Positions 9,817-62,187 are shown, counted from the stretch's first letter. The stretch: DNA of 64,000 bases from Candidatus Omnitrophota bacterium (GCA_023819145.1 JAMWCW010000003.1:4321-68320); one strand, 5' to 3'. Notes: a model not told the origin generated them from the letters alone. Translations and numbers: made by a program.

Positions 9817-11067
9817 ATGAATAAGGTTGTAGGAGTAGTTTTGGCAGCGGGTAAAGGCGTGAGGATGAAATCAGCATTCCCCAAAATGCTACATTCTCTT
9901 TGGGGAAAACCACTTATTAATTATCCCATAGAAACTTTAAGGAGAATAGGGGTAAATAAAATTTTTGTAGTGTTAGGGTATAAAAAAGAAACATTATTAC
10001 CCTATCTTAAAGAGGTAAAAATAATAGTCCAGAAGAGCTTGTTGGGAACAGGGCATGCTTTATTAACTACCGAACCTTATTTAAAAGATTTCAAAGGAAC
10101 AATACTTGTTATCTCAGGAGATGTTCCCTTAGTAAGGGAAGCGACGCTACAAAAATTAGTAAAACAGCATCAATCTTTGAATTCTACAGTTACAATTTTG
10201 GTGGCTAATATTCAGGAACCGTGGGGTTATGGTCGAATATTGCGTGATAAAAATAGCAAAGTTATAAAAATCTGTGAAGAAACGGATTTGGAAAAAGGTC
10301 TGAGTGGAATAGAAGAGGTAAATAGCGGAATCTATTGTTTTAAGGGTTCTTTACTATTCCGATACCTCAAAAAAATAAAGCTCAATCCAAGAAAAAAGGA
10401 ATATTATCTTACGGACATAATTGGTTTAATGGCAGGAGAAGGAGAAAAAATTTCTACACTATGCATAGAAGACAACGAAGAGCTTTTGGGTATTAATACA
10501 CGTGAAGATTTGAGCAGGGCGGAAAAAGTTCTTAATAAAAGAATGGTTAAGAGACTGATGGATGAAGGGATTACAATAGTTGACCCTTCAAATACCTATA
10601 TTGGAGAAGGAGTGGAAATTGGTCAAGATACAATTATCTTTCCTTTTACTGTGATTGAGTCAGGGGTTTCTATTGGGAGAAATTGCAGAGTTGGTCCATT
10701 TTGTCATTTAAGGGAAAAAACAGTAATTGGAGATAATGTAGAATTGGGAAATTTTGTAGAGTTGGTAAGAACGAGGATGGATAGCTTTAGTAAAGCGAAA
10801 CATTTGACTTACTTGGGAGACACTTGTGTAGGTAAAGATGTTAATATCGGTGCAGGGACAATCGTAGCTAATTTTGATGGCAAGAAGAAAAATAAAACTA
10901 TTATTTACGATAAAGCATTTATTGGGAGCGGAACAATCCTTATTTCTCCCGTTAAGGTAGGTAAAGGAGCAGTTACAGGTGCAGGAACAGTGGTTACGAG
11001 GAATAGAGATGTTCCTCCTGGCAAAACTGTAGTGGGAGTTCCCGCAAAGATTTTAACAAAGGAGTGA
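9817..11067 (+). CDS. glmU: bifunctional UDP-GlcNAc pyrophosphorylase / GlcN-1-P N-acetyltransferase
   Basis: 416 aa; N-terminal LAAGKGVRMKS nucleotidyltransferase motif and C-terminal left-handed beta-helix hexapeptide repeats. Confidence 0.9.
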   Translation: MNKVVGVVLAAGKGVRMKSAFPKMLHSLWGKPLINYPIETLRRIGVNKIFVVLGYKKETLLPYLKEVKIIVQKSLLGTGHALLTTEPYLKDFKGTILVISGDVPLVREATLQKLVKQHQSLNSTVTILVANIQEPWGYGRILRDKNSKVIKICEETDLEKGLSGIEEVNSGIYCFKGSLLFRYLKKIKLNPRKKEYYLTDIIGLMAGEGEKISTLCIEDNEELLGINTREDLSRAEKVLNKRMVKRLMDEGITIVDPSNTYIGEGVEIGQDTIIFPFTVIESGVSIGRNCRVGPFCHLREKTVIGDNVELGNFVELVRTRMDSFSKAKHLTYLGDTCVGKDVNIGAGTIVANFDGKKKNKTIIYDKAFIGSGTILISPVKVGKGAVTGAGTVVTRNRDVPPGKTVVGVPAKILTKE

Positions 11068-16249: not shown

Positions 16250-18535
16250 TTGAGAAAATTTTTTGTCATAATACTATTTGTATTTTCCTTCTTCCAGGAA
16301 GAGGTTGTTTTTGCTGAAGATAATCAACCCAAGGTCATCAGTTCTATCCAGGTCTTGGGTAATATCACCGTCAGTTCCTCAACCATCCTTTCCAAAATAA
16401 AATCAAAAGTAGGACAGGCTTTTTCTCAAAAAGAATTGGATGAGGATTTAAAAAGACTCTACGCTACGGGTTATTTTTCCGATATAAGAATTGATTTAAG
16501 GGAAACTGCAGAGGGATTGATGGTGATTTTTAATGTTAAGGAACGTCCGGTTGTAGAAAGTATCGTTTTTGAAGGTAATCGTATTTTTAAGAAAGAGAGA
16601 TTAGAAAAAGCAGTTGGTTCCAAACCAAATGATTTTTTAAATCCCCGTCAGATTAAACAGGATAAGGATGAAATTATACGGATGTATAAAGATAAAGGAT
16701 ATACTCAGGTAGAAGTAACGGATGCGGTGGAGGTAGATTCTCAAACAAATTATGCTAAAGTTAAGTTTGTAATTAATGAACAATTTAGGGCGCGGATTAG
16801 AAAGATTTCGGTGGAAGGAAACGACGCCTATAAACGAGGAAAGATTCTAAAACTGGTTAAGACCAAACCCGCCGGATTCTTTAGGTCGGGTGTTTTTAAG
16901 CCCGAGGTTCTTGAGGAGGATATTGAGCGAATTAAGGTATTTTATCAGAATTCAGGTTATATGGATGTGGAAGCAACTTCTTCGGTAGGATATGAAAAAC
17001 AGTGGATTTACATCACTTTGAAAATCAACGAAGGTAAAAAATATTTTGCTAACGAGGTAGCTATTGCTGGTAACAGCGTATATACTACCGAAGAGTTAAA
17101 AAAAGTACTTAAGATGGTTAAAGGTAAGCCATTTAGGCAGGAGGGCTTGCGCGAAGATATTGTTCGTATTCAGGAGTTATATTTTGATAAAGGATATATT
17201 CAGGCAGAGGTAGATGTGAAAACGCGGTTATTAGAAGGGACGGATAAGATAGATATAAATTACCTCATCACTGAACATGATGTGGCTTATGTAGAAAAGA
17301 TAGATATTCGGGGGAATGTAAGGACAAGAGATTTGGTTATCCGAAGAGAATTACGTCTCCATCCTGGGGAACGTTTTGATGGTAAGAAATTAAAGAGAAG
17401 CAGAGAGCGTCTCAATAATTTGGGGTATTTTGAGGAGATAAACTTCGATATAGAACCTGGAACTACAGCAGATAGAAAGAATTTGGTTGTTTCGGTAAAA
17501 GAGACCAAGACAGGAGAGTTTAGTTTTGGTGGAGGATATAGTTCAGTTGACCAATTCATTGGTTTTGTTGAAATTACCCAGCGCAATTTTGACCTGTTTA
17601 ACTTCCCTTATTTTACAGGTGCGGGGCAGTTTCTGAGACTAAGAGCTCAAATAGGAACGGTGAGGCAAGATTATGAATTGAGTTTCACTGAACCTTGGAT
17701 ATTAGGCTATCCTTATTCTTTCGGCTTTGACCTTTATCAAAGGACTAGAGATAAGGAACGCGACATCGGTTTTGCTTTTAATGAAAAAAGAAGAGGAGGT
17801 GCTCTGCGTTTGGGAAAGGAGTTTACAGATTATACCCGGGGAGATTTAGTGTATCGGATGGATAAGATAAAAATTTCGGATATTGATGCTGAAGAATCGA
17901 GTGACTTGAGACAAGAAGAAGGGGACAACACGGTTTCTGCGGTACTTTTCCGTCTCACCCAAGACACCCGTGATTACATATTCGACCCCACCAGTGGCTA
18001 TGTAATTTCTGGTTCCATAGAATGTGCGGGAGGGCCTTTTGGAGGAGACAAAGATTTCTTGCGTTACATTAGTAGTGGAAGTGTGTACTTTACACCTTTT
18101 GAAAAGATAGTATTAGAAATGAGAATTCGTGCGGGGATAGTGGATGAGTTTGGGAATTCAACTTATGTCCCTATTTATGAGCGCTTCTTCGCAGGGGGTG
18201 CTAATACTATTCGGGGATATAAAGAAAGACGCGTTGGTCCAAGAGACCCCAATACTGGAGATCCCATTGGTGGAGAAGCAATGTTATTGGGAGGGATGGA
18301 GTTTACTTTTCCCCTTGTAGAAAATATCAAAGGAGCGGTTTTTTATGATATGGGTAATGTATGGAAAGAAGCAGATGATTTTGGCTCAGGAGGAATGAAG
18401 TATTCTGTGGGAACGGGGCTTCGTATAAAAACCCCCATAGGCCCCATAAAATTGGATTTCGGATATCCTTTGGAGACCGAAGTTGGGGAAAGGAAGAGTG
18501 GACGATTCCATTTTAGCATGGGTCAGCGGTTTTAA
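16250..18535 (+). CDS. bamA: outer membrane protein assembly factor BamA (Omp85)
   Basis: 761 aa; signal peptide, POTRA repeats, C-terminal beta-barrel ending in F. Confidence 0.9.
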   Translation: MRKFFVIILFVFSFFQEEVVFAEDNQPKVISSIQVLGNITVSSSTILSKIKSKVGQAFSQKELDEDLKRLYATGYFSDIRIDLRETAEGLMVIFNVKERPVVESIVFEGNRIFKKERLEKAVGSKPNDFLNPRQIKQDKDEIIRMYKDKGYTQVEVTDAVEVDSQTNYAKVKFVINEQFRARIRKISVEGNDAYKRGKILKLVKTKPAGFFRSGVFKPEVLEEDIERIKVFYQNSGYMDVEATSSVGYEKQWIYITLKINEGKKYFANEVAIAGNSVYTTEELKKVLKMVKGKPFRQEGLREDIVRIQELYFDKGYIQAEVDVKTRLLEGTDKIDINYLITEHDVAYVEKIDIRGNVRTRDLVIRRELRLHPGERFDGKKLKRSRERLNNLGYFEEINFDIEPGTTADRKNLVVSVKETKTGEFSFGGGYSSVDQFIGFVEITQRNFDLFNFPYFTGAGQFLRLRAQIGTVRQDYELSFTEPWILGYPYSFGFDLYQRTRDKERDIGFAFNEKRRGGALRLGKEFTDYTRGDLVYRMDKIKISDIDAEESSDLRQEEGDNTVSAVLFRLTQDTRDYIFDPTSGYVISGSIECAGGPFGGDKDFLRYISSGSVYFTPFEKIVLEMRIRAGIVDEFGNSTYVPIYERFFAGGANTIRGYKERRVGPRDPNTGDPIGGEAMLLGGMEFTFPLVENIKGAVFYDMGNVWKEADDFGSGGMKYSVGTGLRIKTPIGPIKLDFGYPLETEVGERKSGRFHFSMGQRF

Positions 18536-18551: not shown

Positions 18552-19079
18552 ATGAGGAAAAATATTTTATTTTTAGCAAGCGTTGTGCTTCTGGGAGTTT
18601 CTTTATGTTATGCAGCAGATTTAAAAATAGGTTATATTGATGTTTCGCGGGTTTTTGATGAATATAACCGCACAAAAGAGGAAGATCAGATTCTGGAGAA
18701 GAAAGGCAGTGAGAAAGAGGCACAACGGGAAAAGATGGTTAATGAAATCAAAAAAATTAAAGAAGAATTAGACCTTGCTTCGGATAAAGTAAAACCCGAT
18801 AAACAAAAACTTTTGGATGAGAAGATAAAAAATCTACAGGGATATGACCGCACAACCCGGGAGGACCTCCGTAAAGAAAGAGATGGTATTGTAAGGGAAA
18901 TATTGAAAGAGATAGACGGAGTAATACAGGAATTAGGGAAGAAAGAAGGATATACCGTTATTGTTAATGAACGCTTGCTTCTCTATAGAGATGAATCTCT
19001 TGACCTTACGGGAAGAGTGATAAAGATTCTTAACGAGCAGTACGATAAGAAGAAGTCATCTGCTAAAGAGAAGAAATGA
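18552..19079 (+). CDS. skp: periplasmic chaperone Skp/OmpH
   Basis: 175 aa; signal peptide plus coiled-coil OmpH-like; canonical position between bamA and lpxD. Confidence 0.75.
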   Translation: MRKNILFLASVVLLGVSLCYAADLKIGYIDVSRVFDEYNRTKEEDQILEKKGSEKEAQREKMVNEIKKIKEELDLASDKVKPDKQKLLDEKIKNLQGYDRTTREDLRKERDGIVREILKEIDGVIQELGKKEGYTVIVNERLLLYRDESLDLTGRVIKILNEQYDKKKSSAKEKK

Positions 19080-20158
19080 GAAAGACACTTGCTGAGATAG
19101 CGGCGATTATTGAAGGAGAGGTAGTTGGAGACCCTAATACTATTATTACGGGAATATGCGGGATAAAGGAAGCAAAGGAAGGAGATATTACTTTCGTAGC
19201 AAATTCAAGATATCTCTCTTTGATGAATCAAACACACGCCTCTGCCATAATTACTTCACGCGAAGTCAAATCTGCACCTAAGCCAATTGTCCGCACCGAG
19301 AACCCCTCCCTTGCCTTTGTAAAAATGGTTTCACTTTTTGCCCCAAATGAGGTGCATCATCCCAAAGGTATTCATCCCACTGCAGTTATCGGTAAAGATG
19401 TGAAGATTGGCAAGAATGTTTCTATACATGCCTATGCGGTAATTGAGGATAAGGTAGAGCTGGGAGACAATACGGTGATTTATCCCTATGCTTATGTTGG
19501 GCATTATACAAAGATTGGTTTTGATTGTTTAATACATTCACACGTTTCTATAAGAGAGAGGGTTACGATTGGAAACAGGGTTTGTATTCATAGTGGAACA
19601 GTAATAGGTAGTGATGGATTTGGTTTCGCTACGGTTAAAGGTGTGCATCATAAAATTCCACAGATTGGAACGGTGGTGATAGAGGATGATGTGGAAATTG
19701 GTGCGAATGTAACAATTGATCGTGCTCGTTTTGGCAGGACATTTATTGGCAAGGGGACGAAGATTGATAATCTTGTACAGATTGCTCACAATGTAGAAAT
19801 TGGAGAGAATTCAATTATTGTTGCTCAAACAGGTATTTCCGGAAGTACGGTAATTGGTAAAGGAGTTACTTTAGCAGGTCAGTCGGGCATAGTAGGACAT
19901 ATTACGATAGGGGATAATGCAGTAATCGCTGCCCAAGCAGGGGTTACCAAATCGGTTCCTCCCAACACTTGCGTTTCAGGTTATCCTGCTAAGCCACACA
20001 GTTTGGCGAAAAGGATAAATGCCTGTATTCAGAGATTACCTAAATTGTTTGAAACGGTTGCGGAATTAAAGAATAAATTACAAGATTTATCTCAAGAGTT
20101 GTCCAACCTGACGGTAAAGGAGAATATAGATAATGGAGTATCAAAAGACAATCGGTAA
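19076..20158 (+). CDS. lpxD: UDP-3-O-acylglucosamine N-acyltransferase
   Basis: 360 aa; hexapeptide-repeat left-handed beta-helix; lpx cluster context. Confidence 0.9.
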   Translation: MRKTLAEIAAIIEGEVVGDPNTIITGICGIKEAKEGDITFVANSRYLSLMNQTHASAIITSREVKSAPKPIVRTENPSLAFVKMVSLFAPNEVHHPKGIHPTAVIGKDVKIGKNVSIHAYAVIEDKVELGDNTVIYPYAYVGHYTKIGFDCLIHSHVSIRERVTIGNRVCIHSGTVIGSDGFGFATVKGVHHKIPQIGTVVIEDDVEIGANVTIDRARFGRTFIGKGTKIDNLVQIAHNVEIGENSIIVAQTGISGSTVIGKGVTLAGQSGIVGHITIGDNAVIAAQAGVTKSVPPNTCVSGYPAKPHSLAKRINACIQRLPKLFETVAELKNKLQDLSQELSNLTVKENIDNGVSKDNR

Positions 20159-21458
20159 AGAGGTGGAATTGAAAGGAACGGGTTTACACACCGGAGAAGA
20201 AGTAAGAATTAAATTTAAACCTTCTTTACCGGACGCAGGAATAGTTTTTAAGCGTATAGACCTGCCAGGCAAGCCTTTTATTCAAGCCACGATGAATAAT
20301 ATAATCGATATAAACAAGAGTCCACGCCGGACTTCTATAGGGAGCAATGGCGGAGAAGTCCATACTATTGAACATTTGATGGCAGTTCTCTCTATTCTTA
20401 ATATCGATAATATCTTGATAGAGATTGATGGACCGGAAGTTCCGGGGATGGATGGCAGTGCGTTCCCTTTTCTGGAGGTTTTGGAAAATGCCCGCATAGA
20501 AACGCAGAATGCTTTACGAAAGCTTTTTCAGATTAGAGACCCTATTTGGATTAGTGAAGGAGATTCCAGTATAGTAATTTTACCCAGCCAAGAATTTAAA
20601 ATTTCCTATCTTCTTTCTTATGACCACCATCCCTATTTAAGACCTCAGTATTTAAATTTTGTGGTCAATAGAGATATCTTTATGAAAGAGATTGCTCCTG
20701 CGAGAACATTTTGTCTTAAGGAAGAAGTGGAAGTTTTAAAAAATCAAGGGTTAGGTTTGGGTGCTAATTATGAGAATACCGTAGTGGTGGGAGAGAAAGG
20801 AATATTGAAAAACAGATTGCGTTTTGAAGACGAATTTGCACGTCACAAGGTTCTCGATTTGATTGGAGACCTTTATCTCTTGGGATACTCTTTGAAGGGG
20901 CATGTAATTGCCATAAAGAGTGGGCATCCCCTCAATATAAAAGTGTTGCAAAAAATTGAACAGCAGCGAATTCGTCTTGTTGAAGGAGCAATAAAATCTG
21001 TTTCTACAAATTTTGAATTAGAGAAAGCCTATTTAGATATAAATGATATCCAAAAAATTTTGCCTCATCGCTATCCTTTCCTTTTTGTAGATAAGATAAT
21101 AGAAATCCAGGAGGACAAACGGGCGGTGGGTATAAAGAATGTGACCATCGACGATTACTACTTTCAAGGGCACTTTCCAGGAAGGCCGGTAATGCCAGGA
21201 GTGCTTATTGTAGAGGCGATGGCCCAGGTTGCAGGGGTGCTTATGCTTTCTAAGAAAGAGAATCAAGGGAAACTTGCTTATTTTATGAGCATAGACAATG
21301 TAAAGTTTAGACGTACTGTTCTTCCGGGAGACCAATTGCATTTAGAAGTAGAGGTGGTTCGATTAAAATCTAAAACAGGTCAAGTCCATACCAAGGCATT
21401 CGTGGATTCTAAGATTGTAGCGGAGGCTGATTTGATGTTTGCCTTGGTAGATGCTTGA
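20133..21458 (+). CDS. lpxC: fused UDP-3-O-acyl-GlcNAc deacetylase / 3-hydroxyacyl-ACP dehydratase (LpxC-FabZ)
   Basis: 441 aa; N-terminal LpxC domain, C-terminal FabZ hot-dog domain ([27 protein letters not shown]). Confidence 0.9.
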
Positions 21459-21525
21459 AACGATATATTTTGGGATACATAATGATTACAGTGATAGTAC
21501 ATTGTAATCAATTTTTTTATTGGAA

Positions 21526-22299
21526 ATGGTTAATATCCATTCTACCGCAATAGTTTCCCCCGGAGCGCGCTTAGCTAAAACAGTTAGTGTAGGAGCTTAC
21601 TCTTTTATTGGTCCCGATGTTATCATTGATGACAATACCGTTGTAGGAACATCTTGCGTAATTGAAGGAAATACAAAAATTGGTAAGAATTGTCGTATTT
21701 TTACGGGAGCGGTAATTGGCAGCATTCCTCAGGATTTGAAGTTTAAAGGAGAAAAAACTTTTCTGGAAATAGGCGATAATAATATTATCCGCGAATATGT
21801 CACCATTAATCTAGGGACCAAGGCTACGGGGAAAACGGTAATTGGTAATAACAATCTTATTATGGCTTACTCGCACATTGCACATGACTGCCGTATTGGC
21901 AACGGCGTAATTATTGCCAATGTAGGGACCTTGGCAGGACATGTGACTATTGAAGATAAGGTAGTGGTTGGAGGGATGGTAGCAATTCATCAATTTGTGC
22001 GTGTGGGAAAACTTGCGATTATTGGTGGTTGTTCAAAAGTAATTCAGGATATTCCTCCCTTTTCTATTTGCGATGGTCATCCGGCAAGGTTTTATGGATT
22101 AAACGTAGTAGGGCTAAGAAGGGCAGGAATGAAACCTGAAGTGAGGAATAGTTTAAAAACCGCATTGAAACTTCTTTTTCAATCAGGCCTATCCACTTCC
22201 CATGCCCTGGAGGAAATCAAGAAAAGATTGGCTCCCAATGAAGAGATAAAGCACCTTATAGATTTTGTGAAAAATTCTCAACGTGGAGTCTGTCGTTAG
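21526..22299 (+). CDS. lpxA: acyl-ACP--UDP-GlcNAc O-acyltransferase
   Basis: ATG at 21526 (MVNIHSTAIV); hexapeptide repeats and C-terminal helical domain; ORF track start 21520 is TTG inside T-run. Confidence 0.9.
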   Translation: MVNIHSTAIVSPGARLAKTVSVGAYSFIGPDVIIDDNTVVGTSCVIEGNTKIGKNCRIFTGAVIGSIPQDLKFKGEKTFLEIGDNNIIREYVTINLGTKATGKTVIGNNNLIMAYSHIAHDCRIGNGVIIANVGTLAGHVTIEDKVVVGGMVAIHQFVRVGKLAIIGGCSKVIQDIPPFSICDGHPARFYGLNVVGLRRAGMKPEVRNSLKTALKLLFQSGLSTSHALEEIKKRLAPNEEIKHLIDFVKNSQRGVCR

Positions 22300-22337
22300 G
22301 ATTATTCTTTCAAGAAGTTAAGTTACTGATAACTAAG

Positions 22338-23150
22338 ATGGAAAAAATGAGAAAAATCGGATTGATTGCCGGAAGGTCGCGTTATCCCTTGCTTCTTGCA
22401 GAAAAGGCAAGAGAACAGGGGTTTACTATTGTTGCTATAGGCATAAAGGGTGAAACTTTACCAGAGATAGTAAATTATGTTTCTGAGACTCACTGGTTAG
22501 AAGTTGGAGAATGGGGGAAATTGGTAGGCATATTAAAACGCGCAGGTATTAAAGAAGCAATCATGGCAGGAGGCATTAAGAAAACTCTTCTTTTCAGAAA
22601 CGATGTCCATATTGATAAAGCCGTTTTAGAGCTCATTGATTCTTTAAGGGACAAAAAAGACATGTCTATATTAAATGCTTTTGCACAACAGTTAAAGAGA
22701 GAAGGGATAGAACTCTTAGATTCTGCTTCTTTTCTGGAGGATCTTTTACCCTCCAAAGGATGTCTCACCGAACGCATCCCCAATTCTTTAGAATGGGAGG
22801 ATATAAAATTTGGTTGGGATATAGCTAAAGAAATAGCGCGGGTTGATATCGGTATGACTGTAGTAGTGAAAAATAAGGCCGTGTTGGCAGTAGAAGCGAT
22901 AGAAGGGACAGACGAGACAATAAAGAGAGGGGCTTTGTTGGGCGGAGAAGGGACAGTAGTAATAAAGGTTTCTCGTGTAGAACAGGATAGGAGGTTTGAT
23001 TTGCCAGTGATAGGATTGAATACCATTAAAATAATGGAAGAGGCTAAGGCAAGAGTTTTGGCTATCGAAGCAAACCAGGTGCTTTTTATTGATCAGGAAA
23101 GAGCAATTGAAGAAGCAAACAAAGCAAATATTTCTATTGTAGCTATATGA
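22338..23150 (+). CDS. lpxI: UDP-2,3-diacylglucosamine hydrolase, LpxI (DUF1009) type
   Basis: 270 aa; DUF1009-like size and position immediately after lpxA; no LpxH homolog seen in window. Confidence 0.7.
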   Translation: MEKMRKIGLIAGRSRYPLLLAEKAREQGFTIVAIGIKGETLPEIVNYVSETHWLEVGEWGKLVGILKRAGIKEAIMAGGIKKTLLFRNDVHIDKAVLELIDSLRDKKDMSILNAFAQQLKREGIELLDSASFLEDLLPSKGCLTERIPNSLEWEDIKFGWDIAKEIARVDIGMTVVVKNKAVLAVEAIEGTDETIKRGALLGGEGTVVIKVSRVEQDRRFDLPVIGLNTIKIMEEAKARVLAIEANQVLFIDQERAIEEANKANISIVAI

Positions 23151-23854
23151 AAGAAAAAAAACCCTTGTTTGTTAAACAACTTAAGGCATTATCAAAAATT
23201 AGTGAAGCCATTACCTCAGATTTATATTTAGAAGATATTTTAAAATTAATTGTTAATGTTACTGCGCAGGTAATGGATTCTAAAATTTGTTCCCTTTTTC
23301 TCTTAGATGAAAAGAAAAAAGAACTGGTCGTTAAGGCTACGCAGTCAATTTCTGAAGCCTATAACAAAAAACAAAATCTGAAATTGGGAGAGGGGATTGC
23401 GGGTAGGGTAGCACAAGAAGGACGGCCGATTATAGTTTTAGATGTACGTAAAGATCCACGTTATGTAAATCAATCGATTGCTAAGAAAGAGGGGCTCTGT
23501 TCTCTCCTTAGCGTTCCGTTAAAGGTTAAAGGGAGAGTAATTGGTGTGCTTAATATATATACTGCAAACCTTCACCGTTTTAGCAAGGAAGAGGTTGATA
23601 TTCTGATGACGGTAGCTAATCAGGCAGCAATTGTTATTGAGAATGCTTGTTTGATAGTGGAATCGAAAGTTATCCGCGAAGAATTAGAAGCACGTAAATT
23701 TATTGAGCGAGCAAAGGGAGTTTTAATGAAAGAAGAAAAACTTTCTGAAGAAGATGCTTATCGTAAAATACAGAAATTTGCGATGGACAATCGTCGGACC
23801 ATGCGCGAAGTAGCTGAGGTTATTTTACTTAGTTACAAGATGAAAAAAAGGTAA
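23147..23854 (+). CDS. GAF domain / ANTAR RNA-binding antitermination regulator
   Basis: 235 aa; N-terminal GAF-like region, C-terminal ANTAR-like helices (ELEARKFIERAKGVLM...AYRKIQKFAMDNRRTMREVAE). Confidence 0.75.
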   Translation: MKEKKPLFVKQLKALSKISEAITSDLYLEDILKLIVNVTAQVMDSKICSLFLLDEKKKELVVKATQSISEAYNKKQNLKLGEGIAGRVAQEGRPIIVLDVRKDPRYVNQSIAKKEGLCSLLSVPLKVKGRVIGVLNIYTANLHRFSKEEVDILMTVANQAAIVIENACLIVESKVIREELEARKFIERAKGVLMKEEKLSEEDAYRKIQKFAMDNRRTMREVAEVILLSYKMKKR

Positions 23855-23878: not shown

Positions 23879-23911
23879 GCCCACAGAATAAAAAGTGGGC
23901 ATTTTGTTTTT
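23879..23911 (+). terminator. intrinsic terminator after GAF-ANTAR gene
   Basis: GCCCAC-agaataaaaa-GTGGGC then ATTTTGTTTTT. Confidence 0.65.
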
Positions 23912-23917
23912 GTTGAT

Positions 23918-32826: not shown

Positions 32827-33006
32827 ATGGCAAAGGTAGTAGTAAGACCAGGGCAGTCTATTGAAGGAGCAATCCGAGCTTTTCGCAAAAAATGTCAAGA
32901 GGAGAGGATTATTCAAAACTATAAAAGAGCTTCACGTTATGAAAAACCTTCTGCTGCACGGCGCATAAAACAGAAAGAAAGTCGTATGCGCGGTAGGGGG
33001 AGGTAG
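32827..33006 (+). CDS. rpsU: 30S ribosomal protein S21
   Basis: MAKVVVRPGQSIEGAIRAFRKKC...; GAGGTG RBS; ORF track start 32818. Confidence 0.85.
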   Translation: MAKVVVRPGQSIEGAIRAFRKKCQEERIIQNYKRASRYEKPSAARRIKQKESRMRGRGR

Positions 33007-33068
33007 CTTTATAAAGATAGGCTTGACAACTTTGGAATTTTTGCTAAAATTTTAAAACCAAAAGACAA

Positions 33069-33108
33069 AGGCGTCTCTGTAGCAAAAGAAGACGCCTTTT
33101 TGTTTTTT
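33069..33108 (+). terminator. intrinsic terminator downstream of rpsU
   Basis: AGGCGTCT ... AGACGCCT stem followed by TTTTTGTTTTTT. Confidence 0.7.
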
Positions 33109-33124
33109 ATTGGGGAATAGTTAG

Positions 33125-33967
33125 ATGGTAGAGATAATTTGCAAGAAGATAATTGCTTATAGTTTAGGAACACGTATCGTCCAACTGGAGTTAAAGTCTC
33201 CTCTAATTGCAAAAAAAACTCTCCCGGGGCAATTTGTAGTGTTAATGGTTTCCGAGAAAGGAGAGCGCATTCCTCTGACAGTAGTAGATAAAGATGAAGA
33301 AAGAGGGACAATTACCTTAATTTTCCAAGAAGCAGGGTTTACCACACGGTCTTTAGGAAGTTTGAAAGAAGGGGATTTTTTATATGCTTTGGTAGGACCA
33401 TTAGGAAATTATACAGAGATAAAGAATTATGGAAAAGTAGCTTTGGTTGGAGGAGGGGTGGGAATTGCGGAAATTTATCCGGTAGCCAAGGCTTTGAGAA
33501 AGGAAAACAATCATCTTATTACCATATTAGGTGCAAGAACCAAAGATTTATTGATTTTAGAAAAAGAACTAAAACAAGTATCTCAGGAATTGTATGTTAC
33601 TACCGATGATGGTTCTTATGGTAGAAAAGGATTTGTTACCGATGTTTTGCAAGAATTATTAACTATACACTATGCGCTGAATGCTATAGAATTAATCTAT
33701 GCGGTCGGTCCTGTTCCTATGATGAAAGGGGTTTCTCAAATTGCTAAAGATAGGGGAATAAAAGCCATTGTTTCTTTGAATGCTTTAATGGTCGATGCTA
33801 CAGGAATGTGCGGATGCTGTAGAGTAACCGTTGATGGAAAGACAAAATTTAGTTGCATTGATGGGCCAGAGTTTGAAGCCCAAAGTATAGATTGGGAGGA
33901 ATTAGGGAAAAGAACAAAGATGTATCAGGATAAAGAAACTCATATTTGCAAACTATACAACCGATGA
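33125..33967 (+). CDS. NfnA/SudB-like FAD/NAD-binding electron-transfer subunit (PyrK family) with [2Fe-2S] site
   Basis: 280 aa; ferredoxin-NADP reductase-like fold and C-terminal CGCC..C cluster motif; paired with GltD-like subunit. Confidence 0.7.
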   Translation: MVEIICKKIIAYSLGTRIVQLELKSPLIAKKTLPGQFVVLMVSEKGERIPLTVVDKDEERGTITLIFQEAGFTTRSLGSLKEGDFLYALVGPLGNYTEIKNYGKVALVGGGVGIAEIYPVAKALRKENNHLITILGARTKDLLILEKELKQVSQELYVTTDDGSYGRKGFVTDVLQELLTIHYALNAIELIYAVGPVPMMKGVSQIAKDRGIKAIVSLNALMVDATGMCGCCRVTVDGKTKFSCIDGPEFEAQSIDWEELGKRTKMYQDKETHICKLYNR

Positions 33968-35412
33968 GAAAAGAGCCAGTTAAAGTAAAAGAAATTAATA
34001 TTGAGGAAAGAACCAAAAGTTTTAAAGAGGTGGTTTTGGGTTATACTGAAGAAGAGGCAATTCTTGAAGCAAAAAGGTGTTTACAGTGCAAAAATCCTAC
34101 CTGTATCCTGGGGTGTCCTGTAGGAATAGATATAAAGAAATTTATTAATCAGATTGCCCAAAAAGATTACGAAGGTGCATATTGTACAATTAGAGAAAAA
34201 AATAATTTTCCCTCTATCTGTGGAAGGGTTTGCCCTGCAGAATATCAGTGTAGAAAAGCTTGTGTTTTGACTAAACGAGGTTCTATTTTTGCCTCTTTTG
34301 AAGCGATAAATATTCATTTCTTGGAGAGATTTGTGGGAGATTGGGGAATGATAAATATAAATTCTAAATCCGAAGCTCTAAATCCGAAGGTAAAGGGAAT
34401 AAAGAATTTAAACTTGAAATTTAGAGATAAAAGAGTGGCAGTTGTGGGTTCCGGGCCTGCAGGGCTATGTTGTGCGGGAGAGCTTGCGCGTCGTGGAATT
34501 GCAGTAGATATCTATGAAAGTTTACACAAACCAGGAGGTGTTTTGCGTTACGGAATACCTAATTTTCGTTTACCTCAAGAGATTTTAGATAGCGAGATAA
34601 ATTACCTGAGAGAGTTAGGAGTAGAAATAATGACTAATTTTGTCATTGGGAAATTAAAAACCGTAGATGAACTTTTTAAAGAGGGTTATTCCGCTATTTT
34701 TTTAGGTTTGGGTGCAGGAATCCCTACTTTTTTAGGAATTAAAGGAGAAAATCTCTGCAACATCTACTCGGCAAATGAGTTTTTAACCCGCGTTAACCTT
34801 ATGTTTGCTTACAAATTTCCCGATTATCATACGCCTCTAAATATAGGAGAGAGAATTATAGTAATTGGTGGAGGAAATACGGCAATGGATGCGGCAAGGT
34901 CTGCTTTAAGACTTCAGGTAATGAATAGAATTAAACCCGATGTTACGATACTTTATCGACGTACAGAGAGTGAGATGCCTGCAAGGCGTTTAGAGATTGC
35001 TCATGCTCAAGAAGAGGGAGTTAAATTTAAATTTTTAGTCCAGCCGCAGGAATTTGTTTCTGATAAACAAGGGTTTCTTAAAGGGCTTGTTTGTTTAGAG
35101 TGCAAGTTAGGAGAACCTGATGATTCTGGAAGACCAAAATCTATTCCTGTTCCAGGAAGTGATTTTCTTTTGGAAACGGATTTAGTAATCGTGGCTGTGG
35201 GCTTAAGGGCAAATCAGTTGCTTACTAGGGTTACTCCTGAGCTTAAGGTTGATAAGTATGGCGATATCATTGTTAATCCGGAGACGATGGAAACTTCGTT
35301 AAAGAATGTTTTTGCTGGTGGAGATATTGTAGGCGGAGAAGGGACAGTAATTGAAGCAATGGGTATGGCAAAGAAGGCAAGCGCTTCTATAATTAATCTC
35401 CTTTTCCCCTAA
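33964..35412 (+). CDS. NfnB/SudA-like subunit (glutamate synthase small-subunit family; 2x[4Fe-4S], FAD, NADPH)
   Basis: ATG at 33964 (ATGA overlap with upstream gene); Cys clusters CLQCKNPTC..C and CGRVCPAEYQC; Rossmann VAVVGSGPAGL. Confidence 0.7.
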   Translation: MRKEPVKVKEINIEERTKSFKEVVLGYTEEEAILEAKRCLQCKNPTCILGCPVGIDIKKFINQIAQKDYEGAYCTIREKNNFPSICGRVCPAEYQCRKACVLTKRGSIFASFEAINIHFLERFVGDWGMININSKSEALNPKVKGIKNLNLKFRDKRVAVVGSGPAGLCCAGELARRGIAVDIYESLHKPGGVLRYGIPNFRLPQEILDSEINYLRELGVEIMTNFVIGKLKTVDELFKEGYSAIFLGLGAGIPTFLGIKGENLCNIYSANEFLTRVNLMFAYKFPDYHTPLNIGERIIVIGGGNTAMDAARSALRLQVMNRIKPDVTILYRRTESEMPARRLEIAHAQEEGVKFKFLVQPQEFVSDKQGFLKGLVCLECKLGEPDDSGRPKSIPVPGSDFLLETDLVIVAVGLRANQLLTRVTPELKVDKYGDIIVNPETMETSLKNVFAGGDIVGGEGTVIEAMGMAKKASASIINLLFP

Positions 35413-35494: not shown

Positions 35495-36832
35495 ATGTCT
35501 AAGTATGTAGAAGATTTTATGGCAAAGGTAATCAATAATAATCCTCAGGAACCGGAATTTCATCAGGCGGTAAGAGAAGTAGTGGAATCAGTGATAGATT
35601 ACATAGACAAAAATCCTAAATACAAAGAATACAAAATCTTGGAAAGAATGGTCGAAGCAGAGCGAATAATTATTTTCCGTGTACCTTGGTTGGATGATAA
35701 GGGAGAAATTCAAGTAAATCGTGGATACCGTGTAGAGATGAATAGTGCAATTGGTCCTTATAAAGGAGGGATACGTTTTCATCCCACAGTTAATTTAAGT
35801 ATTCTTAAATTTCTGGCCTTTGAACAGGTCTTCAAAAATGCCCTGACTACTCTTCCCATGGGAGGTGGCAAGGGGGGTTCTGATTTTGACCCCAAAGGAA
35901 AGTCTGACAATGAAGTGATGAAGTTTTGTCAAAGTTTTATGAACGAGTTGTTCAGACACATCGGTCCTGATACCGATGTTCCTGCAGGTGATATCGGCGT
36001 AGGTTTGCGTGAAATTGGCTATATGTTTGGGCAGTATAAAAAACTGCGTAATGAGTTTACAGGGGTTTTTACCGGTAAAGGTCTTAAATGGGGAGGGAGT
36101 TTAATTAGACCCGAAGCAACAGGATACGGTTGTGTATATTTTGCCCAGGAGATGTTGAAAACACGTAAGGAAGCATTAAAGGGTAAGGTTTGCGCTATTT
36201 CGGGTTCAGGCAATGTTGCGCAGTATACTGCAGAAAAACTTATCCAGTTAGGAGCCAAAGTAGTAACCATGTCGGATTCCAATGGATTTATTTATGATGA
36301 GAAAGGGATTGATAAGAAAAAATTAGATTTTATTTTTGAACTTAAGAATATAAAACGTGGAAGAATCAAAGAATATGCGCAGAAATTTAAATGCAAATAT
36401 TTCGAAAATCAAAAACCTTGGGGGATAAAATGTGATATTGCCTTTCCCTCTGCTACGCAGAACGAAATAAGCGGAGAAGAGGCAAAAACTTTGGTTAAGA
36501 ATGGTTGCTTCTTAGTAGCCGAGGGAGCAAATATGCCCACAACACCCCAAGGCATTGATGTTTTTCAAAAGGCAAAAATTCTATACGCTCCGGGTAAAGC
36601 GGCTAATGCGGGAGGAGTAGCTACCTCGGGATTAGAAATGACGCAGAATAGTATAAGACTTTCTTGGACACGCGAAGAGGTTGATAAAAAACTTCAGGAA
36701 ATAATGATTGCTATCCATGAACAGTGTGTGAAATACGGAAAAGAAGGTAACTACATCAACTATGTAAAGGGTGCTAATATTGCTGGTTTTGTAAAAGTAG
36801 CAGATGCGATGATAGAGCAGGGGTTGGTGTAG
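35495..36832 (+). CDS. gdhA: NADP-specific glutamate dehydrogenase
   Basis: 445 aa; GGGKGG active-site region (PMGGGKGGSDFDPKGKS) and Rossmann GSGNVAQY. Confidence 0.9.
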   Translation: MSKYVEDFMAKVINNNPQEPEFHQAVREVVESVIDYIDKNPKYKEYKILERMVEAERIIIFRVPWLDDKGEIQVNRGYRVEMNSAIGPYKGGIRFHPTVNLSILKFLAFEQVFKNALTTLPMGGGKGGSDFDPKGKSDNEVMKFCQSFMNELFRHIGPDTDVPAGDIGVGLREIGYMFGQYKKLRNEFTGVFTGKGLKWGGSLIRPEATGYGCVYFAQEMLKTRKEALKGKVCAISGSGNVAQYTAEKLIQLGAKVVTMSDSNGFIYDEKGIDKKKLDFIFELKNIKRGRIKEYAQKFKCKYFENQKPWGIKCDIAFPSATQNEISGEEAKTLVKNGCFLVAEGANMPTTPQGIDVFQKAKILYAPGKAANAGGVATSGLEMTQNSIRLSWTREEVDKKLQEIMIAIHEQCVKYGKEGNYINYVKGANIAGFVKVADAMIEQGLV

Positions 36833-36833
36833 C

Positions 36834-37313
36834 TTACTCTACAATTTCTCCGATGTAGCTGAATTGCCAGCATTCGATAGCAATCGCCCGTAAGTGCTCT
36901 ACGGTTCCGGGTTGATAGGTTACTGCATAGTCTATCGCTACTTCCTCTTTAACCTCTCCTCCCAGCGTAGAGTAGGGTTTTTCTAAGATTTCTTTTAGTT
37001 TCGGGTCAGTGACATTGATTACCAGTTTACCTCCTCTTAACTCCGCGGTTCCTAAAAACTCACCCTTGGTTGCTTTTTCGGGGTCAAGAGCATAAAAATT
37101 TACTCGCATTTCTACTTTCTCTTCTGGTTTTGTAGGTTCTGAAGAAGTGCTGGGTGAAAGAATAGGAGTAGGTTCTTCACGCGTATTTTGGATTACGGGA
37201 ATTTCTCTCTCAAGGGAAATATATTTTTTTTCCTTTTTGGGCAACCTTAGCACAAAAATAATAGCGCTGATAAGCAAGATGATTAAGATAAAATTTAACT
37301 TCTTCATTATCAT
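36834..37313 (-). CDS. hypothetical membrane-anchored protein
   Basis: Minus-strand ORF 36834..37346; ATG at 37313 preferred; N-terminal TM helix then Pro/Ser/Thr-rich linker; no family recognised. Confidence 0.45.
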   Translation of the reverse strand: MIMKKLNFILIILLISAIIFVLRLPKKEKKYISLEREIPVIQNTREEPTPILSPSTSSEPTKPEEKVEMRVNFYALDPEKATKGEFLGTAELRGGKLVINVTDPKLKEILEKPYSTLGGEVKEEVAIDYAVTYQPGTVEHLRAIAIECWQFSYIGEIVE

Positions 37314-37396
37314 TTTTAGTCTAAATCTTCCTTTACTGTTTGTCAAGATAAATCAAACTTGCAGAAAAAGAGTTGTTTTGTTAAGATAATTCTAAA

Positions 37397-59326: not shown

Positions 59327-60283
59327 ATGGGGAGAGTTTTTCTCTATTTAGGGGAAGAAGATTTTCTTAAAAGAGAGGCTTTAATAAAATTAAGAGATTC
59401 TTATGGAGAGAAAACTGCTTATTTTTCATTTTGTCCAGAGGATGATGGTTTTAGGATGGAAGAAGTCATACGTTTAGCAAGGACCAATAATCTTTTTTCC
59501 CCCCACCAGATAATCGTGATAAAAGACATTGATAAGGTTTCACCATCAGATAAAGAGGTTCTTCTTTCTTATATAAAAAATCCCACCCATTATACCGATT
59601 TAGTTTTACTTACAAGATTGAAGATTAAAAAGTTGGATAATGAGGATAATCTCTGGATAAAAAAACTCTGTAATGAGCCAGGTGTAAAATTTAGAGAATT
59701 TTCTCCCCTTTCCGAAGAAGAACTTCGAAATTGGATAGTTGCTGAGGTTGATAAATGCGGTAAGAAAATTTCTCCTCCCGCTTTAGCTCTTTTGTTTAAC
59801 AAATTAGGCAATAATACCTTTCTTATCTCTCAGGCGATAGAGAAGGCTATTCTTTATATCAAGGATAAGAAAACAATAGAATGGGGGGATTTGGAACAGA
59901 CGGTCGGCAAGGAAATTTCTCTTGATGTGTACAAAATGCTTGGTGCATTTCTTAATGGAAAGATTTATGAAGGGATGGAGATATTACGGGATATACGGGA
60001 TTTTAATGTGAAACCGGATAAAATATTAGGAATATTAGTAGCAGAATGGAGGAAATTCTATCAGGCAAAGAAACTTCTCCGAAAAGGGCTATTACCTGCC
60101 CAGATTAAAAAAGAACTAAATTTATTTTACGCTGATATTTTCTTCTCTAATTTAAAAAAGATTACGCTAGATAAGATAGAGAAATCTCTGCGCGAGCTTC
60201 TTACTATAGATTACGCGATAAAAACAGGGAAATCAAAACCATTTTTTGCTCTGGAGTTGTGGTTCTTGAAGAATTTTAGTTAG
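59327..60283 (+). CDS. holA: DNA polymerase III delta subunit
   Basis: 318 aa; AAA+ clamp-loader delta-like layout; lptE-holA linkage. Confidence 0.8.
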   Translation: MGRVFLYLGEEDFLKREALIKLRDSYGEKTAYFSFCPEDDGFRMEEVIRLARTNNLFSPHQIIVIKDIDKVSPSDKEVLLSYIKNPTHYTDLVLLTRLKIKKLDNEDNLWIKKLCNEPGVKFREFSPLSEEELRNWIVAEVDKCGKKISPPALALLFNKLGNNTFLISQAIEKAILYIKDKKTIEWGDLEQTVGKEISLDVYKMLGAFLNGKIYEGMEILRDIRDFNVKPDKILGILVAEWRKFYQAKKLLRKGLLPAQIKKELNLFYADIFFSNLKKITLDKIEKSLRELLTIDYAIKTGKSKPFFALELWFLKNFS

Positions 60284-60609: not shown

Positions 60610-62187
60610 TTGTCAAATATAATTATGGGAGAACTTGGTAAAGTCCATAGGAAATTAGCTAATTCGGCGGTAATAATTGGCATAGGGACAGCTATTAGCC
60701 GTTTCTTGGGTTTGATAAGGGATATAATCATTGCCCGTGTTTTTGGCACCTCAATTTTAGCAGATAGTTTTTTTGTTGCTTTTAGGATACCCAATCTTCT
60801 CCGCGACTTTGTAGGGGAGGGAGCGACCAATTCCGCTTTTGTTCCCGTTTTTAGTGAGTATTTGGTAAGAAAAGAATTTAATGAGTATCAGCGGTTGGTC
60901 AATGCTTTGTTCAAAATTGCTGTATTGATTCTCTTAACAGTAAGTATTCTAGGGATAATTTTTTCTCCGTTTATTGTAAGTATTATTGCCCCTGGTTTTA
61001 AATTAACGCTTAATAAATATCAAATTACTGTAAGCCTTACGAGAATAATTTTCCCTTACATATTTTTTATTGGTCTTACTTCCTTCTTTATGGGGATATT
61101 GCACTCCCATCAGCTTTTTGCCTCCTCTGCGTTCTCCCCTTGTATGTTAAATCTTGCTTTGATTATGGGAGCTGTTTGGTGGGTAAAGTACATTGGCGTT
61201 TATGGTCTTGCTTGGGCAGTAATTTTAGGTGGTATTCTACAGGTTCTAATTCAGATTCCTTCACTTAAAAGGACGAATTTTAAATTTAAATTAAAGGATT
61301 GCTTCAAACACCCCGGCGTAAATAAAATAGGTAAGCTTCTTCTTCCACGGGTCTTAGGTTCAGGTGTCTATCAGATAAATTTATTTGTGGATACTATTTT
61401 GGCTTCACTTTCTAAGATAGTAGGCGAGGGAGGAGTTTCTGCTCTATATTATTCCAACCGACTCGTTCAATTACCTTTAGCCATCTTTGGCATTTCCGTT
61501 GCTCAAGCAGCTCTGCCTACAATGGCGATTGAGTCTCAAGAGAATAATTTTGATAAATTGTCACAGACGATTTTATTCTCCTTGAGGAATGTTTTTTTTA
61601 TTACCCTACCTTCTGCGGTGGGCTTAATAGCACTCTCTGTTCCCATTACCCGCATCCTTTTTCAGCGAGGGGAGTTTGGGATATATTCTACCCAAATTAC
61701 TTCTTCGGCTTTGTTATTTTATTCTTTAGGGCTGTTCGCTTATGTAGGAATAAAAATTCTTGTTTCTGCTTTTTACTCACTCCAGGATACTTTTACGCCG
61801 GTAAAGATTTCCAGCCTTTCCTTACTTATAAATATAATCCTTAATGTTATTTTAATGTTTCCTTTGAAGGTTTCTGGTTTAGCTTTAGCCACTGCCCTTT
61901 CTGCCTCGTTTAATTTTTCTTTGCTTTTTAAACACCTTAGAAAGAGAATTGCGTCTTTAGAAGCAAAAGATTTGTTATTTTCTTCAATGCGCATTCTTCT
62001 TGCATCCCTGTGCATGGGAATAATGGTTAAGATTTCCTTTTATATTCTAAATTATCTTCTGAAAAACGAAATTTTACAAGTTTTGTTAGCAATTGGCATA
62101 GGTATAGTTTTTTATATTGTTTTTTGTTTTATCTTTAGGGTGAGAGAATTGTACCAGGTGAAGAAATGGATATTAGGGAGAAGATAA
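60610..62187 (+). CDS. murJ: lipid II flippase MurJ
   Basis: 525 aa; 14-TM MOP-superfamily protein; N-terminal AVIIGIGTAISRFLGLIRDIIIARVFG. Confidence 0.85.
   Translation: MSNIIMGELGKVHRKLANSAVIIGIGTAISRFLGLIRDIIIARVFGTSILADSFFVAFRIPNLLRDFVGEGATNSAFVPVFSEYLVRKEFNEYQRLVNALFKIAVLILLTVSILGIIFSPFIVSIIAPGFKLTLNKYQITVSLTRIIFPYIFFIGLTSFFMGILHSHQLFASSAFSPCMLNLALIMGAVWWVKYIGVYGLAWAVILGGILQVLIQIPSLKRTNFKFKLKDCFKHPGVNKIGKLLLPRVLGSGVYQINLFVDTILASLSKIVGEGGVSALYYSNRLVQLPLAIFGISVAQAALPTMAIESQENNFDKLSQTILFSLRNVFFITLPSAVGLIALSVPITRILFQRGEFGIYSTQITSSALLFYSLGLFAYVGIKILVSAFYSLQDTFTPVKISSLSLLINIILNVILMFPLKVSGLALATALSASFNFSLLFKHLRKRIASLEAKDLLFSSMRILLASLCMGIMVKISFYILNYLLKNEILQVLLAIGIGIVFYIVFCFIFRVRELYQVKKWILGRR

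Follow-up and report, generated by a model that had tools for sequence, protein, structure and literature searches.

We analysed a window of 64,000 nucleotides (the whole stretch studied here; GCA_023819145.1, JAMWCW010000003.1:4321-68320) from a metagenome-assembled genome (MAG) of Candidatus Omnitrophota, in which the last gene of a lipid A operon, directly after lpxI, encodes a one-component regulator composed of a GAF and an ANTAR domain. We consider it probable that this GAF-ANTAR protein is a nitrogen-status antiterminator, that its gene follows lpxI through lineage-specific synteny, and that its target within the window is the leader of an nfnAB-gdh gene cluster. In the model that we propose, the leaders of target operons would by default fold as strong intrinsic terminators. 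When the GAF domain reports nitrogen status, an ANTAR dimer would bind and stabilise a small hexaloop hairpin that is weak by itself, (R)GAC-AAAGGC-GUC(Y). Once bound, this hairpin would withhold its loop and 3' arm from the 5' arm of the terminator, the terminator would not form and RNA polymerase would read through. In the window this switch would be the leader at 33063-33109, controlling nfnAB and then gdh, and the position of the regulator gene after lpxI would give at most steady housekeeping expression. RNA binding by the protein, its ligand and the direction of its response are put forward here as parts of this model.

The nfnAB-gdh leader and a hairpin motif of nitrogen-gene leaders

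The predicted target lies behind a sigma-70-like promoter whose -10 box ends 12 nt upstream of a small hairpin beginning at 33063 (Table 1). The loop and 3' arm of this hairpin, which has its hexaloop at 33067-33072, are reused by the 5' arm of an intrinsic terminator (33070-33078), making the two folds mutually exclusive. The terminator has a folding energy of -20.9 kcal/mol (z = -4.91), and none of 200 shuffled sequences was as stable. The hairpin alone reaches only -3.0 kcal/mol, as would be expected if a protein must stabilise it. A scan for hairpins overlapping terminators yields by itself approximately 1.1 chance matches per window, and the match at 33063 therefore needed comparative support; a second such match, at 60807, lies within an open reading frame (ORF) and was taken as chance. 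With a position weight matrix (PWM) trained without the window, the hairpin at 33063 scored 19.5 bits and outranked every other match in the window; 200 simulated windows gave at most 18.5 bits. Two sub-threshold look-alikes, one at 7172 (AGGC-AAAGGA-GUUU, 15.0 bits, in ORF 6441-7268 and with no T-run within the following 56 nt) and one at 59548 (AGAU-AAAGAG-GUUC, 13.5 bits), fit the chance maximum of approximately 13.8 bits per window. Hairpins of the same type also precede nfnA-like genes in two of the comparison loci, which are cited below by L numbers (L067 and L089). Similar promoters stand equally close to the hairpin in L067, L089, L130, L146, L147 and L151; single promoter calls nevertheless weigh little, since a generic scan for terminators and promoters showed no excess of sites over shuffled sequence. 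The gene for ribosomal protein S21 (rpsU, 32827-33005) lies immediately upstream of the leader promoter.

Downstream of the leader the gene order is an nfnAB/gltD-type pair, gdh, hisH and hisF. The nfnAB pair comprises the predicted regulated genes, and gdh, with its own promoter-like site, is probably under the leader in part. The window's gdh is 80% identical to a gdh near the regulator in L002, and gdh is among the commonest regulator neighbours and motif-preceded genes in relatives. The 565-nt gap between gdh and hisH (36833-37396) holds only a minus-strand ORF of 170 amino acids (36834-37346) with no Pfam match; nearly every gene of the window is on the plus strand, and this ORF is either spurious or an unannotated element.

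Leaders that adjoin the regulator gene begin with a promoter, continue with one or two small hexaloop hairpins and close with a strong terminator, into which the 3' arm of the last hairpin is incorporated. A search of 0.95 Mb returned 241 terminator-overlapping hexaloop hairpins, among which the loop class A..G.. was the largest (47) and G..G.. the second (26). The matches to [A/G]NNGNN have the common core (R)GAC-A-A-(A/U)-G-(G/A)-C-GUC(Y), with A1 in 42 and A2 in 39 of 56 matches; G4 was set by the search filter. The genes 3' of the motif include hisH, gltB, gdh, nadE, glnA, nfnA-like genes, three copies of amtB and a glutamate-synthase-like gene, and the motif also precedes an OmpL-type porin gene. 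Scanning 1.29 Mb with the PWM gave 196 matches scoring 13 bits or more. Of these, 169 lay on the gene strand against 27 on the opposite one, and 126 of the 196 overlapped a terminator. Stem pair 4-17, whose pairing the filter did not force, was GC in 52, AU in 35 and GU in 13 cases. Moreover, the covariation score of 0.340 exceeded that of shuffled alignments (0.258+/-0.013), was reached by 0 of 500 shuffles and lay above the score of every slid register. A second hexaloop hairpin stands upstream in 43 of the 126 leaders, where 13.9 were expected, and the remaining leaders have a single one. In an independent set of nfnA-like metagenome loci, this combination of hairpin and terminator was present in 31 of 79, and a version with a 3-bp stem in several others. 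Rfam contains no family for the motif: when scanned permissively, the nfnA leader, the lpx region and five related loci yielded only noise below threshold, narK RNA being the best relevant match with 17.9 bits where the cutoff is 43, and a scan of the whole window at gathering thresholds returned only a tRNA.

Some motif-bearing loci have further features. Three gdh leaders (L022:6720-6830, L031:6730-6840 and L088:6760-6840) share a conserved region upstream of the antiterminator hairpin that reads GCAC..GUGCUUGGC.GAAAGAAAGC..., has no Rfam match and may be a second regulatory structure. Small proteins of 173-194 amino acids are encoded 3' of motif matches or of nadE (L070:~6850-7400, L077:~3300-3900 and L005:3673-4194). 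Weak matches to Sigma70_r2 and GerE in the L070 protein, and to GerE in the L005 product, hint at a transcription factor within the same regulon.

The GAF-ANTAR protein and its relatives

The ANTAR domain (PF03861) occupies the C-terminal residues 177-227 of the 235-amino-acid regulator and scores well above its cutoff of 27.3 bits; its matches in the PDB include Rv1626 (1s8n, 8e-11), EutV (6wsh, 6e-9) and NasR (4akk, 3e-6). The N-terminal GAF_2 domain covers residues 28-165, and the linker between the two domains (residues 166-176) is conserved in the alignment. A PDB sequence search placed the GAF domain closest to that of PtsP/EI-Ntr (3trc, 3e-18; also 3ci6), and its NCBIfam matches were to NF008283 (3e-22) and, more distantly, to TIGR01817 (nifA, 5e-18). 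In EI-Ntr, the GAF domain binds glutamine (PMC4848567). Judging from these related PtsP and NifA domains, the ligand would most likely be glutamine or 2-oxoglutarate, a likeness that is one of analogy only. Two loci (L004:8001-9224 and L005:584-1807) encode a 407-amino-acid variant with two GAF domains ahead of ANTAR. One member with this architecture (P0023), labelled Deltaproteobacteria by NCBI, lies downstream of a Crp-family gene and is itself followed by a hairpin-terminator leader and nadE.

Homologues of the regulator run to thousands near 70% identity. They form one orthologue family with 55-79% identity across more than 10 phyla (L011-L090), which is unusually high conservation for a signal-sensing regulator. 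Our scan of reference genomes gave 80 loci from many groups, including Omnitrophota, Atribacterota, Aerophobetes, Firestonebacteria, Desantisbacteria, Planctomycetia, Thermodesulfobacteriota, Elusimicrobia and Margulisiibacteriota. Some regulator-bearing contigs were binned as Actinomycetota, Clostridia or Patescibacteria, placements that could reflect mis-binning or horizontal transfer. When genes within 3 kb of the regulator were classified with reference proteins at 84 non-redundant loci, nitrogen-assimilation neighbours (nadE, gdh, glnA, gltB, purF, pyrG, guaA, hisH or carB) were present in 38, lpx genes only in 5, and lpx genes together with glnA in another 5. The clearest nitrogen context is that of L001, where hisH-hisF-guaA-pyrG-purF precede the regulator gene and nadE-glnA-gltB follow it.

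The leaders might be genuine and yet be read by something else, either a response regulator of the REC-ANTAR type such as GnfR or a metabolite sensed directly by the RNA, in which case the GAF-ANTAR protein would have different targets. Consistent with this idea, the GnfR site has the identical loop, AA(N)GGC, the nfnA-like loci were gathered without regard to whether their genomes encode a GAF-ANTAR protein, and the genome is visible here in part. However, in seven loci (L001, L005, L016, L020, L022, L031 and L088) the GAF-ANTAR gene is directly followed by the motif, and in L017, L027 and L044 it is directly preceded by it, as would be expected if the two were cognate and the gene autoregulated. 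The window contains no other ANTAR gene; moreover, 14-20 nt is too short for the hairpin to be a riboswitch aptamer, and Rfam gives no match. We regard a different reader of these leaders as very unlikely.

The lipid A operon and the position of the regulator gene

The first-pass annotation of this DNA had called bamA-skp-lpxD, a 441-amino-acid LpxC-FabZ fusion, lpxA, an LpxI-type hydrolase gene and the GAF-ANTAR gene, and the ORFs together with Pfam and NCBIfam bore out each of these calls (Table 1). LpxC and FabZ form a single polypeptide, with Pfam LpxC at residues 4-275 and a FabA-like domain at residues 310-432, and the match to the bifunctional equivalog NF009667 spans residues 2-440; the fusion is found in all lpx-linked relatives. 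For lpxA, translation may begin instead at the ATG at 21526. LpxI, for which comparison with the Caulobacter enzyme had been advised, aligned over its full length with Caulobacter crescentus LpxI (PDB 4ggm, residues 3-266, E = 9e-22). It falls short of the NCBIfam equivalog NF047836 (108 bits against a cutoff of 400) and by sequence is a divergent member; its location in the operon, after lpxA and before the end, supports the assignment. The block is an ordinary lipid A (Raetz pathway) operon, and both of its variants (LpxC fused to FabZ, and LpxI instead of LpxH) have been catalogued before. Compared with Raetz-pathway clusters carrying an NF009667-type LpxC/FabZ, the usual order skp-lpxD-(lpxC)fabZ-lpxA is found here too and nothing essential differs, the sole oddity being the regulator gene added 3' of lpxI.

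Table 1. Positions of the features discussed, counted from the first nucleotide of the window
Feature	Position	Strand	Basis or details
Sigma-70-like promoter of the nfnAB-gdh leader	33023..33050	+	TTGACA, 16-nt spacer, TAAAAT; read from the sequence
Candidate ANTAR-binding antiterminator hairpin	33063..33076	+	AGAC-AAAGGC-GUCU, A1/G4 hexaloop
Intrinsic terminator of the nfnAB-gdh leader	33070..33109	+	5' arm 33070-33078, 3' arm 33088-33096, U-run 33097-33109
nfnA-like (FAD/NAD/Fe-S) and nfnB/gltD-like (Fer4_20 + Pyr_redox_2) NADPH oxidoreductase pair	33125..35412	+	Pfam
gdh, glutamate dehydrogenase	35495..36832	+	Pfam ELFV_dehydrog; own promoter-like site
GAF-ANTAR one-component regulator, final gene of the lpx unit	23147..23854	+	Pfam GAF_2 90 bits, ANTAR 70.9 bits
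Intrinsic terminator closing the lpx/regulator unit	23879..23912	+	GCCCAC...GUGGGC then AUUUUGUUUUUG; fold
bamA	16250..18535	+	Pfam Omp85 255 bits, POTRA 224 bits; 5 POTRA domains
skp/ompH, periplasmic chaperone	18552..19079	+	Pfam OmpH 89.9 bits
lpxD	19076..20158	+	NCBIfam TIGR01853 379 bits, cutoff 242.5
lpxC-fabZ fusion, 441 amino acids	20133..21458	+	NCBIfam NF009667 488.6 bits, cutoff 465
Terminator-type hairpin in the fabZ-lpxA gap	21483..21519	+	11-bp stem, hexaloop AUAGUA, U7 tail
lpxA	21520..22299	+	NCBIfam NF003657 363.5 bits, cutoff 226
lpxI, UDP-2,3-diacylglucosamine hydrolase	22338..23150	+	Pfam LpxI_N 112 bits, LpxI_C 163 bits

The first-pass annotation had suggested that the regulator is an antiterminator whose RNA-level regulation is linked to envelope biosynthesis, and had pointed to a weak hairpin with a T-run between fabZ and lpxA. 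The hairpin is real, with arms and loop at 21483-21510 and a U-run reaching 21519, but it is not weak: its folding energy is -12.2 kcal/mol (z = -5.05), which none of 200 shuffles equalled, and it is probably an internal attenuator. Its stability, its 6-nt loop (AUAGUA) with A1 and G4, and the co-transcription of the regulator with lpxA-lpxI in a position kept in 10 related loci could together speak for control of lipid A or envelope genes by the GAF-ANTAR protein through RNA. However, the hairpin is itself the terminator and has no competing structure, so that binding would not antiterminate. Its score against the family motif is -10.1 bits, which places it 750th of 3179, and its A1/G4 hexaloop is not conserved: L007 has nearly identical arms in a tetraloop fold, L006 and L009 have other hairpins and L011 has none. 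It was rejected as an ANTAR site on all three counts: its score against the PWM, the want of a competing terminator and its non-conservation. In none of the 11 lpx-linked loci did a PWM search match an intergenic region, and the only matches in these operons, scattered and of 13-16.5 bits, lay inside coding sequence at non-homologous positions. Nor are the lpx-linked regulators a specialised paralogue, an idea ruled out by a neighbour-joining tree in which their two clades are separate from each other and nested among nitrogen-linked orthologues. Outside these two Omnitrophota clades the orthologue adjoins nitrogen genes, and the motif is found in nitrogen-gene leaders. ANTAR targets mapped only to unrelated operons, one of the two outcomes that the first-pass annotation itself had named as telling against its proposal; the other, that relatives do not keep the regulator beside lpx genes, was borne out only in part. 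Direct control of envelope genes is largely refuted by these data, and we regard it as highly improbable.

Whether the place of the regulator gene matters for its expression is a separate question. The reported overlap of its start with the lpxI stop was confirmed: the regulator ATG (23147-23149) and the lpxI TGA (23148-23150) are merged as ATGA, a 4-nt overlap of the two genes, and the same overlap occurs in L054, L055 and L075. This overlap, together with the terminator 3' of the regulator gene, upholds its co-transcription with lpxI; terminators stand at the equivalent spot in L006, L007 and L009. That the regulator keeps its position in relatives held in part. In the close relatives L006-L011 (70-77% protein identity) the order is dnaB-bamA-skp-lpxD-lpxC/fabZ-lpxA-lpxI-regulator-mnmG, and in a second Omnitrophota clade (L054, L055, L065, L069 and L075) it is lpxD-lpxC/fabZ-lpxA-lpxI-regulator-queF-glnA; elsewhere the neighbours of the regulator are mostly nitrogen genes. 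Among the 84 loci, a regulator gene after lpxI is confined to two Omnitrophota clades and 10 loci. The placement might serve to tie the dosage of the regulator to envelope growth without any action on lpx RNA, and nitrogen assimilation would then be scaled to envelope demand because lipid A and peptidoglycan use glutamine via UDP-N-acetylglucosamine (UDP-GlcNAc). The ATGA coupling in the window and in three other loci, the adjacency in two clades that the protein tree keeps apart, and the conserved terminator that marks the regulator as the last gene of the operon are in line with such a function. However, the adjacency is absent from most Omnitrophota loci and from all loci of other phyla, and the second clade has queF and glnA after the regulator, so that shared ancestry beside a nitrogen gene explains the position. 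Moreover, a neighbour-joining tree of a 225-amino-acid protein cannot discriminate between a single origin followed by losses and two origins, and the proposed link between dosage and envelope draws on gene arrangement. We consider a functional placement of this kind unlikely.

Several further observations concern this region. In the second clade, the QueF-like gene that separates the regulator gene from glnA encodes approximately 120 amino acids (PF14489, 1e-31; L054:6750-7110) and stands at the equivalent position in L055, L065, L069 and L075; the gene after the regulator is mnmG in the window's clade and queF-like in the second clade, both of which are tRNA-modification genes. Between lpxA and lpxI, L009 (6578-6961) and L010 carry a 384-nt insertion encoding a 79-amino-acid ORF with a GIY-YIG nuclease domain (Pfam PF01541, 5e-11). 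This insertion is absent from the window, L006, L007 and L011, and may be a small mobile GIY-YIG element within the lipid A operon. A GlmU-like gene (NTP_transferase and hexapeptide repeats, 9817-11067) lies approximately 9 kb upstream of the lpx block. Over the whole window (1-64000) the GC skew is positive in every 2-kb bin but one and nearly all long ORFs are on the plus strand; the window as a whole appears to lie on the leading strand of one replichore.

Comparison with known ANTAR systems and significance

According to Ramesh et al. (2012), an ANTAR target comprises two hexaloop hairpins with A1 and G4, of which the second overlaps a terminator; such targets were strongly associated with nitrogen genes, mostly lying upstream of them, and no GAF-ANTAR protein had been characterised as of that study (PMC3369931). 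A 2025 review names GAF only among the sensor domains that are combined with ANTAR (PMC12591593). The ANTAR domain studied here is homologous to those of EutV (6wsh) and NasR (4akk), and its candidate sites share with the targets of the EutV/EutW, NasR and AmiR systems (PMC3369931, PMC8934654) the A1/G4 hexaloop, a short weak stem, a 3' arm shared with the terminator and the nitrogen theme. They differ in that the canonical target consists of two tandem hairpins, whereas most leaders here, including that of the window, have one and approximately one third have two. The sensors differ as well, being REC, NIT or an AmiC partner in the canonical systems and GAF here.

A close parallel is the GnfK/GnfR system, which likewise pairs an ANTAR output with control of nitrogen genes through leader terminators, as proposed here. 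In Geobacter sulfurreducens the REC-ANTAR protein GnfR acts at CAGGCAANGGCGCC sites overlapping terminators in the leaders of nif, glnK and amtB (PMC2995071). Compared on the published consensus only, this site is a GGC-AANGGC-GCC hexaloop over a terminator, with the same loop as the AA(A/U)GGC found here (AAAGGC in the window) and a GGC/GCC stem in place of GAC/GUC. Although amtB is among the targets in both cases, GnfR is a phosphorylated response regulator and serves nitrogenase from RpoN-dependent promoters, whereas the protein described here has a GAF sensor with no kinase partner and its candidate regulon concerns assimilation (gdh, glnA, gltB, nadE, nfnAB and amidotransferases) from sigma-70-like promoters. 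PtsP/EI-Ntr and NifA, whose GAF domains are the best sequence matches, have a phosphotransferase and an AAA+ activator as outputs, in contrast to the predicted RNA-binding ANTAR output here.

A number of points weigh against the nitrogen antiterminator that we favour. The first set of loci was selected by presence of the regulator, so that the enrichment for nitrogen genes and that for the motif are partly coupled, and the PWM and terminator criteria were derived from those same loci; the nfnA set and the window are independent of them. Neighbours were unclassified in 36 of the 84 loci. The leader in the window has a single hairpin rather than the canonical two, with no P1 candidate upstream. 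Our view covers 64 kb of a 144-kb contig, and the RNA might instead be bound by another ANTAR protein, such as a GnfR-like response regulator, encoded in some other part of the genome. Finally, the translational coupling to lpxI in two clades is unexplained by the nitrogen model and could be meaningful.

A broader interpretation is that the family, common to Omnitrophota and a dozen mostly uncultivated phyla, constitutes a previously uncharacterised one-component master regulator of nitrogen assimilation that senses glutamine or 2-oxoglutarate directly through its GAF domain, acts mostly through single hairpins instead of the canonical pair and in two Omnitrophota lineages has become part of the lipid A operon so that the supply of the regulator follows envelope synthesis. 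We offer this only tentatively, and on present evidence doubt that all of it will hold. The lipid A block itself is a matter of routine annotation, and its suspected link to envelope regulation is not upheld. What emerges instead is a concrete and testable regulon for the GAF-ANTAR class, with a defined RNA site, (R)GAC-AAAGGC-GUC(Y) and its overlapping terminator, and a defined gene set (amtB, glnA, gltB, gdh, nadE, nfnAB and glutamine amidotransferases), distributed widely in phyla without cultured representatives. It gives a handle on nitrogen sensing in Omnitrophota and similar bacteria, and the single-hairpin leaders provide natural ANTAR substrates for studying how an ANTAR dimer reads RNA.

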